The notes: generated from the letters alone by a model not told the origin. A DNA stretch of 60,179 nucleotides from Candidatus Campbellbacteria bacterium (GCA_007117035.1 SKHG01000018.1:1-60179); one strand, 5' to 3'. Shown: positions 22,329 to 59,913, counted from the first letter of the stretch. Translations and numbers: made by a program.

Positions 22329-22369
22329 AACTAGTGACATCTAAAGCTATTTTAGGTACAATACAGCGC

Positions 22370-23665
22370 ATGGATAACAACAGCAAGCTCTCAACTCAAC
22401 CGTACAAAGGAGTTCGGGATTTCTATCCCAAAGACATGTCTGTGTTACAACAGATTTTTAATGTAATGAGAAAATCGGTTGAAAAATTTGGATACCTAGA
22501 ATACAACGCCTCCCCCATTGAACCATCTTCAATATATCAAGCCAAGTCCGGAGATGAAATTGCAAATGAACAAACTTACAATTTTCTAGACAAAGCTGGA
22601 CGAAACATCTCTCTAAGACCAGAGATGACACCTACTATTGCCAGAATGATTGCTGGTCGAGACCAAAAAATTTCATTGCCTATCCGATGGTACTCTATTC
22701 CAAACGTCTTTCGTTATGAAAACCCACAAAGAGGCCGTCTACGTGAACACTACCAACTCAATGTTGATATTTTTGGCGGAGAACCTGAAATAGCTAATGC
22801 TGAAATTTTGATGGTAGTCCACGAAATTATGACTGGCTTTGGCGCTTCTACTACTGATTTTGCAATAAAAATAAACGACCGTACTATTCTGGCAGACATA
22901 TATAAAAAATTTGAAGTTCCTAAAGAAAAAATTAAAGATGTTTCCAGACTTCTTGATAAAAAGGAGAAAGTATCTAAAACAATTTTTGATGAGGCACTAG
23001 AATCATTGGTTGGTTCTGAGATTTCTAAACCTTTAGCAGAAATCCTATCTTCTCCAGAATTTATAATTGAAACTTTAGGTATAGATAACCCTGGGATTAA
23101 AAATGTAATCGGTTTAATAGAAAAACTTGAAAACTACGGTGTGACTAACCTAATCTTTGAACCAACACTCGTTCGAGGATTTGATTACTACAATAGTTTC
23201 GTTTTCGAAGTTTTTGACACTGATAGTGAAAATCGGAGATCACTTTTTGGTGGTGGAAGGTACGACTCCCTAACTGGGCTTTTCTCCAACGAAGAGATTC
23301 CTGCAGTCGGTTTTGGTATGGGTGATGTTGTTCTACAGGATTTTCTGAAAACTCACAACATTCTTCCAGAAAGTTTAACACCTGCTGATTTATCAATTAT
23401 TTCTGTTGATCAAAATAGTTACGATGATGTCTATTTAGTCGCCAGAAAAATTAGAGAGTTTGGTCTAAATGTTGATATTGATATCAGTAATAAAAAAGTT
23501 GGTGCTCAGATAAAAAGATCTGTCTCAAACTCTATTCCATTTGCCTTGTTTATTGGAGAAGAAGAGATTCGTAACAAGAAATACAATCTGAAAGACCTGA
23601 GAACCCAAGAAGAAAAACAACTAAACCTAGAAGAAATAGTAGAAGTAGTTAAAAATAGTAAATAA
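22370..23665 (+). CDS. hisS: Histidyl-tRNA synthetase
   Basis: KGVRDFYP, LRPEMTP, FRYENPQRGRLREHYQ, RGFDYY, GGGRYD, anticodon-binding domain. Confidence 0.96.
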   Translation: MDNNSKLSTQPYKGVRDFYPKDMSVLQQIFNVMRKSVEKFGYLEYNASPIEPSSIYQAKSGDEIANEQTYNFLDKAGRNISLRPEMTPTIARMIAGRDQKISLPIRWYSIPNVFRYENPQRGRLREHYQLNVDIFGGEPEIANAEILMVVHEIMTGFGASTTDFAIKINDRTILADIYKKFEVPKEKIKDVSRLLDKKEKVSKTIFDEALESLVGSEISKPLAEILSSPEFIIETLGIDNPGIKNVIGLIEKLENYGVTNLIFEPTLVRGFDYYNSFVFEVFDTDSENRRSLFGGGRYDSLTGLFSNEEIPAVGFGMGDVVLQDFLKTHNILPESLTPADLSIISVDQNSYDDVYLVARKIREFGLNVDIDISNKKVGAQIKRSVSNSIPFALFIGEEEIRNKKYNLKDLRTQEEKQLNLEEIVEVVKNSK

Positions 23666-54115: not shown

Positions 54116-54694
54116 TTAGTTGTATTTGTTCATAGTTTTCTCTAAACCAAATTTAATTAAACCGTCCAAAACCTCTGAGATTTTGAAGAGTGTTTCTTCT
54201 TCTACCTTTTGCACGCTCAGTACAAAATCTGATGATTCACTTGGTTTGGTCTGCGGACAGACACCTATCCGTAGACGTAGGAAGCCAACAGTGTTAAGAG
54301 AATCAATTATTGACTTAACTCCTTTATGACCACCAGATCCACGACCAAGCGACAGTCTAATCTGCCCTTTAGGTAGGTCAATGTCGTCGTGCAAAACAAC
54401 CAAGGACTCAATTTCCATATTTCCATACGAAATTACAGTATCGACCGACAAACCAGAGAGGTTCATAAAAGTTTGAGGTAGAACTAATACTGTCTGAGAA
54501 CCACTGACCTCACCGATACTTTTAAGTGAGTTTGATTTTTTATCAATTACAAATTCTGGGAAGTTATTTTTCTGAGCAAAGTAAACAACCGCTTCGCGCC
54601 CAATATTGTGCGGAGTGTTTTTGTATTTTTCACCTGGATTACCTAACCCAACTAATAAAAATTTCTTATTTTCTTTTTTTTGTTCTTCTAACAT
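54116..54694 (-). CDS. pth: Peptidyl-tRNA hydrolase
   Basis: VGLGNPG, TPHNIG, PQTFMNLSG, LHDDIDL, GGHKGVKS, RLRIGV. Confidence 0.95.
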   Translation of the reverse strand: MLEEQKKENKKFLLVGLGNPGEKYKNTPHNIGREAVVYFAQKNNFPEFVIDKKSNSLKSIGEVSGSQTVLVLPQTFMNLSGLSVDTVISYGNMEIESLVVLHDDIDLPKGQIRLSLGRGSGGHKGVKSIIDSLNTVGFLRLRIGVCPQTKPSESSDFVLSVQKVEEETLFKISEVLDGLIKFGLEKTMNKYN

Positions 54695-54764
54695 TTTGCT
54701 TTTATTATTTATTATTACTTTATACTTGAAATGTGTCTACATTTGTAATACAATAGCACAACTT

Positions 54765-55310
54765 ATGAAAGATGTTTTAACATTCTTACTCCTAGTTTTC
54801 TTGATAGTGGTGCCAATAAGAATATTTGTAGCCCAGCCATTCATTGTAAATGGTGCTTCTATGGATCCAACTTTCAATACTGGTCAGTATCTAATTGTCG
54901 ATCAGTTAAGTTATAGATTCAACTCACCTAAACGAGGAGATGTGGTGGTCTTTCGATATCCTAATGACCCAAACCAGTTTTTCATAAAAAGAATTATCGG
55001 TCTACCAGGCGAAAAACTCGAGATTCAACAAGGTTCAGTTACAGTTTACAGCAAAGAAAATCCTTCAGGGGTAAAGTTGGAAGAACCCTACATAAAAAAC
55101 AACTCAAAAAACGATAATCTAGTCATAGCACTAAACAAAGACGAGTACTATGTTTTAGGAGATAACCGCTCTGCCAGTTCCGATTCCCGTTCATGGGGTC
55201 CTTTGTCAGCCTCAGAAATAATTGGTCGACCACTGTTCCGTTTAATTCCTTTTAGAACTATCTCAATTTTTCCTGGGAAATATAAAAGTGATTACATAGA
55301 TCCAAATTAA
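54765..55310 (+). CDS. lepB: Signal peptidase I
   Basis: VNGASMDPT (Ser), FIKRIIGLPGE (Lys), GDNRSASSDSR; start refined to MKDVL. Confidence 0.95.
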   Translation: MKDVLTFLLLVFLIVVPIRIFVAQPFIVNGASMDPTFNTGQYLIVDQLSYRFNSPKRGDVVVFRYPNDPNQFFIKRIIGLPGEKLEIQQGSVTVYSKENPSGVKLEEPYIKNNSKNDNLVIALNKDEYYVLGDNRSASSDSRSWGPLSASEIIGRPLFRLIPFRTISIFPGKYKSDYIDPN

Positions 55311-55350: not shown

Positions 55351-56628
55351 ATGATTCAGCAAAAATCCTCAAACATAAAATTGTTAACTGACTACACACC
55401 CAACAATAGTTTCGATGCTTTTCCTTTCGGGTTGTATGAATGTACTCCCGCTGCTGAAATCGCAATGTACTACGGTTTTACATCAGTTCATAGACTAAAA
55501 CCTTCTGACATTGACCCAGAAGCCAATCAGATTGTTGATAGTTTAAATTCTGTTTTTCCTTGTCACGAGTCAGATCAAAAACTTTTTAACACAAAAGAAA
55601 AAGCGACTTTGATAAAAATGTATCGCGAAGGACGCTTTCCTTCCCTACCAAATCCCATAATGCTTTATTATGAAAAACCCTTAACTCAACAAAAATCCAA
55701 ATCAACATACAAACACTCTTGCAGCATAGACATTATCGGAGTAGAAAAGAGTATAAGCGAAGCTTTGGTCATCCAGAGTTCCTTAGCTATTCTTGAGGAT
55801 GCTGGTTTTTCAAACCTAGAAGTTGAGATAAATAACACAGGTGACGATGAATCACGAAATCGTTACGAGAGCGAACTTAAGTTATATATAAAAACCTCCT
55901 TAGGTTTAATGCCCGACAATATGAAAGATGCGTGTCGAACAGATCCGTATATGCTTTTTTCATTTAACAACACTTTGGCAGAAAAATTACAAAACAATGC
56001 TCCAGAACCAATTGCTTATCTTTCAGATAAAAACAGAAAGCACTTCACAGAAATCTTAGAGTACCTTGAGGGTCTTGGTATAGCCTACAGCATTAAAAAT
56101 AATCTTTTAGCTAATCGAAAAGTTCAGTCACAGACAATATTCCGAATCATCTCAAAGGATTTACCCAGCACAAACAGAGAGATAATTTCAGCTCGAGGTA
56201 TGAGATATTCAGCTTTAGGAAGATCACTTGGTTTTAGAAAAGAAATTCCTGCCATGGGAGTTTACCTTTCATATATTGCACCTCTCTCAAATCGAAAAAA
56301 ATCATTAACCAAAAGAATAAATCCAAACTTTTGCTTTGTTCACCTCGGATTTGACGCCAGGCTTAAAAGTCTTAAAATTATTAATGATCTTCGCAAAAAG
56401 AGAATCCCTTTGTGTCATTGCCTAACTCGAGAAAAATTAACACCCCAAATGTCTTTTGCTGGAAAATTAAATCTTCCTTATATGATAATAATTGGACAAA
56501 AAGAAGCTGCTGAAGGTACGGTTATAGTCCGGAGTATTGAAAACCGATCTCAGGAAACAATTCCCCTTACAAAACTCTATGATCATCTTAGGAAGTTAAA
56601 AAGACGAAAAACCAGAGTTATAGTTTAG
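55351..56628 (+). CDS. Catalytically degenerate HisRS paralog (retains anticodon-binding domain)
   Basis: Overall HisRS-like layout (YYGF, DIIG, LEVEIN, RY..L, PYMIIIGQKE...VIVRS) but lacks RPE, the motif-2 Arg and RGxDYY. Confidence 0.75.
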   Translation: MIQQKSSNIKLLTDYTPNNSFDAFPFGLYECTPAAEIAMYYGFTSVHRLKPSDIDPEANQIVDSLNSVFPCHESDQKLFNTKEKATLIKMYREGRFPSLPNPIMLYYEKPLTQQKSKSTYKHSCSIDIIGVEKSISEALVIQSSLAILEDAGFSNLEVEINNTGDDESRNRYESELKLYIKTSLGLMPDNMKDACRTDPYMLFSFNNTLAEKLQNNAPEPIAYLSDKNRKHFTEILEYLEGLGIAYSIKNNLLANRKVQSQTIFRIISKDLPSTNREIISARGMRYSALGRSLGFRKEIPAMGVYLSYIAPLSNRKKSLTKRINPNFCFVHLGFDARLKSLKIINDLRKKRIPLCHCLTREKLTPQMSFAGKLNLPYMIIIGQKEAAEGTVIVRSIENRSQETIPLTKLYDHLRKLKRRKTRVIV

Positions 56629-56688: not shown

Positions 56689-56937
56689 ATGACAGCAACA
56701 CAAGTTAAAGTAGAAAAAAATAACAACGAGAATACTACATCTCTTATAAGACGCTTTACAAAAAAAGTTCAGGGTTCGGGTTTGGTTCAAAAAGTTCGTT
56801 CAATTCGTTTTCGATCAAGACCTTCCTCTACCCTTAAAACAAAACGAGAAGCTTTGAAGAGAATTGAGAACATTAAGAACAGAGAGCGTTTAGTAAAACT
56901 AGGTAAACTTCCTGAGAATCGATACGGCCGACGATAA
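56689..56937 (+). CDS. rpsU: 30S ribosomal protein bS21-like
   Basis: VKVEKNNNENTTSLIRRFTKKV...RFRSRPS; small and very basic. Confidence 0.75.
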   Translation: MTATQVKVEKNNNENTTSLIRRFTKKVQGSGLVQKVRSIRFRSRPSSTLKTKREALKRIENIKNRERLVKLGKLPENRYGRR

Positions 56938-56960: not shown

Positions 56961-57392
56961 ATGAATAAAGGAAAACAAGAAGTAAAAACAGATCCCTTAA
57001 ATATTGGGGGTTTGTTTTTTTCTTGGTCTACCAAATCAAAGCCACCCCAATTACCTTACGAAAAAATAAAAGACAGAGTCCTGGGAAAAAAGTACGGATT
57101 GAGTCTGGTTATGATCGGAGAAAAGAAAGCTAAAGACCTTAACCAAAAATATAGAAGCAAAAATTATCCAGCAAATATTTTAAGTTTCCCTTTATCATCG
57201 GACGAAGGTGAGATTTTTATCTGTCTCAAAAAAGTTGAGTCTGAATCTAAGCAATACGAACGAACATATAGACAATGCCTGGCACTTTTTTTTATCCACG
57301 GTTTATTGCATTTGAAAGGTTTGCAACATGGGAGTAGAATGGAGAAAGAAGAAGAAAAAATTTTGAAAGAATTTGGACTTCTACCAAAATAA
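56961..57392 (+). CDS. ybeY: rRNA maturation endoribonuclease YbeY
   Basis: LNQKYRSKNYPANILSF, GEIFIC, IHGLLHLKGLQH. Confidence 0.93.
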   Translation: MNKGKQEVKTDPLNIGGLFFSWSTKSKPPQLPYEKIKDRVLGKKYGLSLVMIGEKKAKDLNQKYRSKNYPANILSFPLSSDEGEIFICLKKVESESKQYERTYRQCLALFFIHGLLHLKGLQHGSRMEKEEEKILKEFGLLPK

Positions 57393-57487: not shown

Positions 57488-58666
57488 ATGAGCAGAAATA
57501 TAATCACAGGAATAGATATAGGCACACATCAAATAAAAGTATTGATAATTGAACGTGCTCAGTTAAACAACAGTTTTATTCCAAAAATTTTAGGAGCAGG
57601 TACCGCAGAGTCTAAAGGTTTAAGACATGGGTATATAGTAAACAAAGATGACGCTAAAAAAAATATTCAGGAAGCAATATCTATGGCCGAAAGGTTGGCT
57701 GGTGTTTCAGTAAAAAATGCTTTTGTTTCTGTTGGAGGAGTAGGACTCTCATCAACAAACTCTAAAGGCAAAGTTTCAGTTACTAGAGCTGATATGGAAG
57801 TCACTGAGACTGACATAAAAAATGTAAGCGATGTTGCTGAAATAGATATCCCTACATCAATAACCCTAAACCGAAAAATAATTCACAGTGTTCCTGTTGA
57901 ATATAAACTTGATGGACAGGTTGTTTTAGGAAACCCTGTTGGACTAAAAGGCGCAAGTCTTGAGGTTAAGATGCTTTTCATAACATCCTTAGAACACCAC
58001 CTAACTGATCTTATGGATGTTATTGAATCTCTAAACATCCAGATTGAAGATGTGATTGCTTCACCGATTGCTTCGAGCTTTGTTTCGCTTTCCAAAACAC
58101 AAAAGATTGCTGGTTGTGTATTGGTCAATATAGGATCCGAGACTGTTTCGGCCGTGGTTTTTGAAAACAATTTACCAATTTCTTTAGAGATCTTCCCTGT
58201 TGGTGGTTCAGACATTACCAACGACATTGCTCTTGGCTTCAAACTAACCCTAGAAGAAGCAGAGCAGGTTAAGCTGGGAGGAATTACTCCTAACGATCTT
58301 TCATCTAAAAAACTAGACGAGGTTATAAATTACAGGTTATCTGAAATTTTTAAACTTATTAACAACCACCTCAAAAAAATTAATAGACAAGAACTACTAC
58401 CAGCTGGTGTAGTAATCACTGGTGGAGGTTCTGCTTCAAAAAATATTTTAGATTTGGCTAAAAAAAATACGAACCTCCCCTCTTCAATAGCTCAACTTAA
58501 CCGATCCTCAAAATCTCACCACCTCAAAGACTCTTCCTGGTCAGTTGCGTACGGTCTCTGTATAATTGGTATGACAGAAGGAGGAAACAAAAAAAACAAA
58601 ACAAGTGAAATATTTCGTAGAAACTGGAAACCTGTATCAATCTGGATTAAACAGTTCTTACCGTAG
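57488..58666 (+). CDS. ftsA: Cell division protein FtsA
   Basis: GIDIGTHQI, SKGLRHGYIVN, VNIGSET, GGSDITNDI, VITGGGS. Confidence 0.93.
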   Translation: MSRNIITGIDIGTHQIKVLIIERAQLNNSFIPKILGAGTAESKGLRHGYIVNKDDAKKNIQEAISMAERLAGVSVKNAFVSVGGVGLSSTNSKGKVSVTRADMEVTETDIKNVSDVAEIDIPTSITLNRKIIHSVPVEYKLDGQVVLGNPVGLKGASLEVKMLFITSLEHHLTDLMDVIESLNIQIEDVIASPIASSFVSLSKTQKIAGCVLVNIGSETVSAVVFENNLPISLEIFPVGGSDITNDIALGFKLTLEEAEQVKLGGITPNDLSSKKLDEVINYRLSEIFKLINNHLKKINRQELLPAGVVITGGGSASKNILDLAKKNTNLPSSIAQLNRSSKSHHLKDSSWSVAYGLCIIGMTEGGNKKNKTSEIFRRNWKPVSIWIKQFLP

Positions 58667-58737: not shown

Positions 58738-59913
58738 ATGCCACATATAAAACCAGAAGTTGAAGCTTTCGCAAGAATAAAAGTGTTCGGAGTTGGAGGT
58801 TCCGGAAAAAATGCCGTCAACCACATGGTTGACTCAAAAGTTAAAGGTGTTGATTTTGTAGCGGTAAATACCGATGCTCAAGACCTTCACCACACAAACA
58901 CCAAGAAAAAGATTCATATTGGTAAAAACCTGACCCGAGGACTAGGAACAGGAATGAACCCAGAACTTGGGAAAAAAGCTGTTGAAGAAAACAAAGAAGA
59001 GATTCAAGAAGCAATTAAGGGAGCCGACATGATATTTATCGCAGGTGGAATGGGTGGAGGAACCTGTACTGGTGCTTCCCCACTTATCGCCCGAATGGCT
59101 AAGGAGCTTGGTGTCCTGACAGTAGCAGTTATAACCAAACCTTTTTCTTTTGAAGGTGTGCAAAGAATGCGTTACGCTGAGCAAGGTTTAGAGGAACTGA
59201 AAGCAGCTGTTGACGCTATTATTACTATTCCCAACGATCAGCTTTTCCAAACAATCAGTAAAGAGACAACAGCAAACAATGCTTTTGCAATGTGTGACGA
59301 TATCCTAAAACAAGCAGTTGAGGGAATTTCCGACCTTATCACAAATCCAGGAATCATTAACACAGACTTCGCTGACATTAGATCTATAATGGATAATGCA
59401 GGAACAGCCTTAATGGGAATTGGTAAGGCTAGTGGAGAAAAACGAGCCTCTGAGGCCGCTAATATTGCTATTAATTCCCCACTCCTAGAACTTTCTATTG
59501 ACGGTGCTCAAGGTGTCTTGTTCTCAATCGCAGGTGGAGATGATCTAACTATGTTCGAGATAAAAGAAGCAGCCGACACTATCACCAACTCAGTTGATCC
59601 AAACGCGAAAATAATTTTTGGAACCGTAAAAGATGACAAACTTCGAAAAGGTGAAATCAAGATTACAGTTATTGCTTCAGGCTTCACAGAGGATGCTGTT
59701 CGCAAAAGTCGAAAAAACAAGGCAATGACAGAAATTTCTGAAAATCCTGTAGATAAGAAAAACGAGATACAAAACAAAGCTACCGAAGAAAAGAAGTTAA
59801 GTTTGGACAATAAAACAAAAACTAATCTTATCGATATTGACTCACCAGAGGATGATGACGATTCAGACTGGAGCGCAGTTCCAAGTTTCCTAAGAAGATC
59901 AAAACTTAAGTAA
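58738..59913 (+). CDS. ftsZ: Cell division protein FtsZ
   Basis: GVGGSG, NTDAQDL, GGMGGGT tubulin signature, NTDFADI, C-terminal VPSFLRR. Confidence 0.98.

Follow-up and report, generated by a model that had tools for sequence, protein, structure and literature searches.

The stretch of DNA analysed here (the window: 60,179 nucleotides from Candidatus Campbellbacteria bacterium, GCA_007117035.1 SKHG01000018.1:1-60179) encodes two proteins of the histidyl-tRNA synthetase (HisRS) family, one intact and one deprived of its catalytic motifs. Foreign genes often replace synthetase genes, and the displaced copy is normally assumed to vanish. Which of the two genes is the resident one, why has the inactive copy been kept, and what could a HisRS without chemistry still do? 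A first-pass annotation of the window had compared the 425-amino-acid product of the inactive gene with the intact HisS at 22370 and had described it as a dead HisRS paralog with a C-terminal tRNA-binding domain, proposing a tRNA-binding or sensing role such as GCN2-like detection of uncharged tRNA or tRNA scavenging. In what follows, HisRS-like genes at the loci of related genomes were typed by two HMMs and by motifs into intact bacterial-type HisRS (A), dead HisRS (D) and an intact HisRS of a different type, the replacement (R).

A dead synthetase with a complete HisRS fold

The reading frame was recovered at the expected place and length (table 1), and several lines of evidence assign its product, P0001, to the HisRS fold. 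Indeed, the only Pfam match is HGTP_anticodon (PF03129; residues 339-415, 7e-10), whereas the NCBIfam hisS model TIGR00442 aligns with residues 122-405 at 106.6 bits, below its cut-off of 286.75. The best sequence match in the PDB is the S. aureus HisRS 1qe0 (2e-23, residues 83-415), and the AF2 model, obtained with 85 relatives as input (pLDDT 88.2, pTM 0.90), matches HisRS chains along its entire length in Foldseek (E 3e-24, probability 1.0). The 425 residues are taken up by the HisRS fold alone, with no output domain found by Pfam or in the AF2 model. P0001 belongs to a family of dead HisRS, as indicated by 452 bits on the 85-member dead-family profile together with its motif loss and its position between lepB and rpsU.

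Alignment to intact HisRS bears out the loss of RPE, of the motif-2 FRxE/R residues and of RGxDYY noticed at first reading. FNTKEK stands in place of LRPExT (RPE being replaced by NTK), the motif-2 FRxE..QxGR loop reads PLTQQKSKSTYK, the HisA motif LVRGxDYY has become LLANRKVQ, and the glycine and arginine of motif 3 (G..R) are S307 and A310. Half of the HisB motif GGGRYD is retained as RGMRYS (G283, R285 and Y286, i.e. G-x-R-Y), and conserved residues of the insertion domain persist (P218, L224, H231, F232, E237 and L239).

This erosion is common to the family: the 112 D proteins compared have lost GxxD, RPExT, the motif-2 arginine and loop, NPLRILDSK, RGLxYY and G..R of motif 3, together with further positions conserved at 90% or more in A (E53, the KEMY loop, R/PQ/GR/R of motif 2 and the HisB aspartate). 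More than half of them have had the motif-2 loop deleted altogether. The motif-1 proline, L49 in P0001, is retained in just 40% of them, which makes the dimerization of D uncertain. Across the 112 proteins no new conserved residue has appeared in the former pocket, the D-specific changes being D148 to E and three cysteine-to-serine replacements in the insertion domain; this argues against a new catalytic activity of D.

As regards these cysteines, live A-type HisRS of the order carry three conserved ones in the insertion domain (C179, C236 and C239 in the numbering of L001:4046-5350; approx. 75-80%), which form a possible metal site. They are serine in 81-94% of the dead copies; P0001 has S168, S225 and N228.

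Table 1. Positions of the HisRS genes, of the parts of the dead HisRS and of its neighbours in the window, followed by the short replacement enzymes of related genomes (ABD, anticodon-binding domain).
Feature	Coordinates	Strand	Remarks
Active replacement HisRS (R type, P0002)	22334..23665	+	GTG start; ATG at 22370 may be start
lepB (signal peptidase I)	54606..55310	+	Upstream border of slot
Dead HisRS (D type, P0001)	55351..56628	+	425 aa; from fold, family, slot and motif loss
Pseudo-catalytic N-terminal part, residues 1-165	55351..55845	+	Motif-1 region, former RPE, former motif 2; least conserved in D
HisRS insertion domain, residues 166-245	55846..56085	+	C-terminal half conserved; NPLRILDSK lost
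Class II core, C-terminal part, residues 246-315	56086..56295	+	HisA lost, HisB half kept, motif-3 Arg lost
ABD, residues 326-415	56326..56595	+	Keeps every position >=90% conserved in live relatives
GUG-reader equivalents G382-Q-K-E385 ... R394 ... Q401	56494..56553	+	Aligned to T. thermophilus HisRS
rpsU	56689-56937	+	Downstream border of slot
ybeY	56961-57392	+	Downstream border of slot
ftsA	57488-58666	+	Conserved slot continuation
ftsZ	58738-59913	+	Conserved slot continuation
ABD-less R (G495)	L050:2408-3508
ABD-less R (G475)	L052:2514-3491
ABD-less R (G461)	L054:2518-3513
ABD-less R (G440)	L056:2523-3452

The dead gene occupies the ancestral hisS slot

All 44 A loci and all 31 D loci, that of the window included, lie in the same arrangement, (S1)-pth(-)-lepB-[X]-rpsU-ybeY-ftsA-ftsZ, so that the neighbours lepB, rpsU and ybeY named by the first-pass annotation are accompanied by pth on the minus strand, ftsA and ftsZ. 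The main R type has a separate conserved slot, truB(-)-[R]-RNaseH-like-DsbA-like, which is also that of P0002 in the window, and genomes of the same order with an intact gene in the lepB-rpsU slot have no second HisRS. Since A and D share one slot, and since intact-slot genomes are without another HisRS, the dead gene of the window is by position the ancestral, bacterial-type hisS of the lineage and the intact HisS is the newcomer. Thus, of the idea of a side paralog, the dead HisRS fold stands, whereas the relationship is reversed: the dead gene is the positional ortholog of the hisS of its relatives.

No terminator-like sites were seen between lepB, the dead HisRS gene and rpsU. The lepB frame, opened by a TTG at 54606, runs for approximately 90 bases over the 5' end of pth, which is divergent (54116-54694, -), so that lepB probably begins at a later start codon.

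The replacement enzymes

P0002 displays all catalytic motifs together with its own ABD, and scores 340 bits on TIGR00442. It is closest to the HisRS of Thermoplasma acidophilum (1wu7, 266 bits) and of trypanosomatids (T. cruzi, 245 bits), bacterial-type structures reaching 135 bits at most, and its motif 3 has the GFGMGD form common to Thermoplasma and trypanosomatid HisRS. From these sequence similarities, P0002 is a Thermoplasma/trypanosomatid-like newcomer enzyme, and its identity to P0001 is only approximately 14-22%.

In four family-level genomes (G495, G475, G461 and G440), the sole catalytic HisRS is a protein of 309-366 aa with intact motifs and without an ABD, alongside a full-length D with an ABD. 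These four short enzymes form one R subclade. In other R copies (L044, L046, L048 and L058) the insertion domain is shortened.

Two further R loci are unusual. In G501, the replacement HisRS forms residues 379-815 of an 817-aa frame (L038:551-3004), and Pfam recognizes nothing in the 375 N-terminal aa; a fusion is possible, as is a start-codon artefact, the contig being 3.9 kb long. G472 (L100, L101 and L102; 7% contamination) contains two R of different subtypes and one D. Either the bin mixes several organisms or one replacement enzyme is giving way to another in this lineage.

Distribution of the dead family

A search of 5.8 billion proteins yielded 85 D-family clusters of 363-457 aa with the same motif loss, the named sources of which are Parcubacteria-type Patescibacteria. 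In the ESM Atlas, PF03129 is the sole domain of at least eight clusters, each with 80-118 members and mostly from Minisyncoccota. We found no description of the family in the searchable literature. Its members are deposited as ‘His/Gly/Thr/Pro-type tRNA ligase C-terminal domain-containing protein’, as ‘hypothetical’ or, wrongly, as ‘histidyl-tRNA synthetase’, a matter of consequence for annotation as profile scores alone fail to separate them from live HisRS. Indeed, the dead-family profile gives live A HisRS 360-425 bits, and a phylum tally made with it (366/401) was therefore discarded as a count of D and replaced by locus-level typing. The tally also included one unpublished genome, G154, on which none of the present claims depends.

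The order was represented by one genome from each GTDB family, 71 in total. Of these, 49 contain D together with R, 27 of them being checked by locus and the remainder inferred from a second TIGR00442 match of 83-165 bits. Another 20 contain A only, every one verified in the slot. R appears by itself in a single genome, in which FtsA was likewise not found, so that the whole slot is probably unassembled, and in the last genome no HisRS was found (assembly gap). Among the 71 family-level genomes there is thus no intact A together with R, and no demonstrable case of R without D. In the sample of 41 genomes of the class, D was detected in five only: that of the window (G000), G143, G429, G416 and G433.

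Selection and recurrence

The D frames are open at all loci examined, two of them ending at contig ends. In the closest D pair (62% identity), pN is 0.26 versus a pS of 0.86, similar to R pairs; as dS is saturated in every available pair, the comparison is one of pN with pS rather than a dN/dS ratio. D has evolved 2-4 times faster than A, and unequally along its length: among same-order genomes, mean pairwise identity is 0.67 in A versus 0.31 in D for the N-terminal catalytic part, and 0.64 versus 0.47 for the ABD. The best-conserved part is consequently the ABD in D and the N-terminal catalytic part in A. Judged from these comparisons, the D copies are kept by purifying selection and are not decaying.

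The same outcome has been reached more than once. When a tree is computed from the markers that flank the slot (pth, lepB, rpsU, ybeY and ftsA), the D genomes G429, G416 and G433 fall among class-level A genomes, outside the order. In the HisRS tree computed with class-level A sequences (LG+C20), the D of G429 and G433 nest in the class-level A clade (SH-aLRT 96), and the order's D clade (99) nests within the order's own A sequences. Constraining all D together costs a dlnL of 70.3 (p-AU 0.0053), in a test run after the tree had been seen and on trees weakened by long-branch effects, as D branches are long. For this reason G416 and G143 cannot be placed reliably. Genomes of the G429/G433 type also use another replacement, which bears LRFDLT and is closest to the HisRS of Nostoc, Elizabethkingia and human (cyanobacterial/eukaryote-like). 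These separate placements and different replacement types indicate that the displaced-but-kept outcome arose, by conversion of A to D, at least twice (AU p = 0.005; post hoc test, long D branches). A single origin of D was suggested by the grouping in a tree computed without class-level live sequences; it broke when these and a site-heterogeneous model were introduced, and the AU test rejects it.

The anticodon-binding domain and tRNA-His

Retention of the C-terminal tRNA-binding domain, one of the initial observations on this gene, is supported both by the PF03129 match and by the residues that would read the anticodon. In T. thermophilus HisRS, E388, K397 and Q404 read G34, G36 and U35 of tRNA-His, respectively (PMC4357726). 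Their equivalents in D are E385, R394 and Q401, which 99%, 97% and 95% of the 112 proteins retain, respectively. They have identical spacing (+9, +7) and also align with a Glu, a Lys and a Gln of E. coli HisRS. With the ABD and its GUG readers preserved, D most likely still binds tRNA-His by the anticodon arm. The tRNA-binding role first proposed for the gene is compatible with this conservation, as D has lost none of the ABD positions that live relatives conserve. The contacts to the acceptor end and to G-1 (motif-2 loop and N-terminal GxxD) are lost in D, so that it could bind whole tRNA-His with low affinity.

The tRNA-His of three D+R genomes (G000, G447 and G469) is ordinary, with G-1 and C73, and a special tRNA requirement is not apparent. 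An altered tRNA-His identity as the cause of the replacement was rejected on the same grounds, D+R genomes alone being compared.

The genome of the window contains a second, different tRNA-His gene on contig C58, whereas the tRNA-His of C38 (36.8% G+C) fits the genome. More generally, many of its contigs (C25-C40 and C58) are 3-4 kb long with a G+C content from 33% to 68%, the window having approximately 36%. Some of the small ones probably stem from contamination, which is rated at 3.5% for the bin.

A displaced HisRS, probably kept for tRNA binding

The account that we favour is as follows. The gene at 55351..56628 is the original, vertically inherited bacterial-type hisS. A second type of HisRS, here the enzyme of 22334-23665, entered the lineage and assumed aminoacylation, after which the original copy lost all residues that bind histidine and ATP and that hold the acceptor end. 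Purifying selection has retained a full-length HisRS-fold pseudoenzyme, in which the ABD with its GUG-reading residues is preserved most of all, along with the fold and some of the insertion domain. D would then bind tRNA-His via the anticodon arm, leave the acceptor end free, and act as a non-catalytic tRNA-His-binding factor, be it a cofactor, a chaperone or a sensor. Taken whole, this statement of a displaced ancestral HisRS turned non-catalytic tRNA-His-binding pseudoenzyme is in our judgement reasonably probable; origin, loss of chemistry and selection are much firmer than the whole, and the analysis shows these directly, as it does the recurrence and the conservation of the ABD. We infer both the binding of tRNA-His by D and its use, the binding from residue conservation.

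A displaced HisRS has thus been kept very long, and at least twice, in some of the smallest known genomes, without its chemistry and with its anticodon reader. Its retention implies a HisRS function that is separable from aminoacylation and that the incoming enzyme cannot supply. To find this function, a natural comparison is offered by genomes with A only, with D and R, and with D and an ABD-less R.

Several other explanations have to be weighed against this account. D could be an obligate partner of R, supplying anticodon recognition or stability in such a way that charging needs both genes, either in a heterodimer like that of SLIMP, a dead SerRS paralog, with mitochondrial SerRS2, or as a trans cofactor like Arc1p. 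The strict co-occurrence of the two (both present in 49 genomes, and R nowhere demonstrable in the absence of D), the ABD-less R found beside a full-length D in four genomes and the shrunken insertion domain of other R copies all speak for such a dependence. However, P0001 and P0002 are very dissimilar, D shows poor conservation around motif 1, the R of this genome already has an ABD, and HisRS relies mostly on G-1:C73 and is able to charge minihelices. Moreover, a tRNA in complex with T. thermophilus HisRS is held mainly by a single subunit, which contributes both the ABD and the active site (PMC4357726), so that a canonical heterodimer would not lend the ABD of D to the active site of R. We regard an obligate partnership as unlikely. 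A bolder formulation, to which we give slightly less credit, is a naturally split HisRS, in which histidylation would need a foreign catalytic R, ABD-less in one subclade, and the dead ancestral D, the latter supplying anticodon recognition or delivery in trans; if true, the dependence would account for the constant retention of D and for the repeated evolution of this arrangement. The ABD might otherwise bind a transcript that imitates the anticodon arm, as known from E. coli ThrRS, which would make D an mRNA-binding regulator that kept an ancestral autoregulatory or operon function. A HisRS precedent exists in yeast, whose enzyme reportedly binds an anticodon mimic in its own mRNA (PMC6542539), and the location of D inside a conserved rpsU-ybeY-ftsA-ftsZ cluster without terminators would suit such a regulator. 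Yet U-GUG hairpins are not enriched near the A/D and R genes: for hairpins with a 7-nt loop, one was found upstream of the A/D genes versus approximately 0.9 expected and two downstream versus approximately 0.9 (74 loci), and none upstream of 33 R genes versus 0.66 expected. Regulation of this kind is, to our mind, quite improbable.

We give slightly less weight still to the reading of D as a functionless relic in slow decay, kept since its deletion would disturb the expression of lepB or of rpsU-ybeY-ftsAZ. The rapid evolution of D, the absence of any newly gained conserved site and its tight packing between essential genes would fit; but genomes this reduced readily lose useless DNA, and the frame has stayed open and full-length in 49 of the 71 family-level lineages and in 85 database clusters, with pN far below pS. 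In addition, side chains with no role other than GUG reading are 95-99% conserved, and the conversion has recurred independently; a relic is therefore decidedly improbable. That D is still an enzyme, either with HisRS activity from an unorthodox active site or with another ligase substrate in the style of EpmA, AsnA or the amino acid:carrier-protein ligases, could be argued from the persistence of the class II core fold and of the HisB G-x-R-Y. It becomes very improbable when one considers that the whole family is without the arginines of motifs 2 and 3, on which class II enzymes universally rely to bind ATP, that most D proteins have dispensed with the motif-2 loop and that the former pocket is lined by no D-specific conserved residue. 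The least credible reading, to which we attach next to no weight, is that of a HisZ-like regulatory subunit of ATP phosphoribosyltransferase. HisZ is likewise a bacterial, catalytically inactive HisRS homolog, but its HisRS-like core lacks an ABD and works with HisG, whereas the ABD is the best-kept part of D. A profile search for HisG (PF01634), which recovered the protein in all 14 named control genomes, gave no match in the genome of the window (96.6% complete), from which we conclude that D is not HisZ, as the first-pass annotation had held; P0001 accordingly scores 15 bits on TIGR00443, for a cut-off of 271.65. Among the 71 genomes of the order, a single HisG match was found (G439:C93:2255-2590). 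As it lies on a small contig and the bin comprises 190 contigs, it is probably a contaminant.

Comparison with known systems

A non-catalytic tRNA-His-binding factor derived from a resident enzyme can be set beside several known proteins. With bacterial HisS (1qe0, E. coli 1htt and T. thermophilus 4rdx), D has in common the three-domain architecture, the predicted fold and an ABD with the GUG-reading Glu, Lys/Arg and Gln, and the live hisS of close relatives occupies the same genomic slot. Unlike them, D is without the motifs for histidine, ATP and the acceptor end, and a different HisRS does the charging. SLIMP and the accessory subunit of DNA polymerase gamma are dead proteins of the class II synthetase fold, and Arc1p/Trbp111 are trans-acting tRNA-binding cofactors. 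Like D, each is a dead fold or a tRNA cofactor kept for binding; they differ from it in parent enzyme and in partner, and to our knowledge none is a displaced ortholog in its original operon.

The closest analogue of D in mode of action is the HisRS-like pseudoenzyme domain of GCN2, although D is not a member of that family. In GCN2, a HisRS-derived pseudo-catalytic domain and ABD are kept for tRNA binding instead of catalysis (PMC11363354), and D combines the same two elements, its tRNA binding being predicted. However, the GCN2 domain is eukaryotic, is fused to a kinase and other domains and binds uncharged tRNAs generally, whereas D is bacterial, free-standing and without an output domain, and keeps anticodon readers specific to tRNA-His. 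The origins differ as well, by displacement of a resident enzyme for D and by duplication and fusion for the GCN2 domain.

Finally, the acquisition of archaeal-type TyrRS and TrpRS by CPR bacteria provides a precedent for a foreign synthetase replacing the bacterial one; in the available part of the source (PMC5370408), no displaced enzyme is reported as kept in the form of a pseudoenzyme. Here, the displaced HisRS is retained as a conserved dead pseudoenzyme with its anticodon reader.
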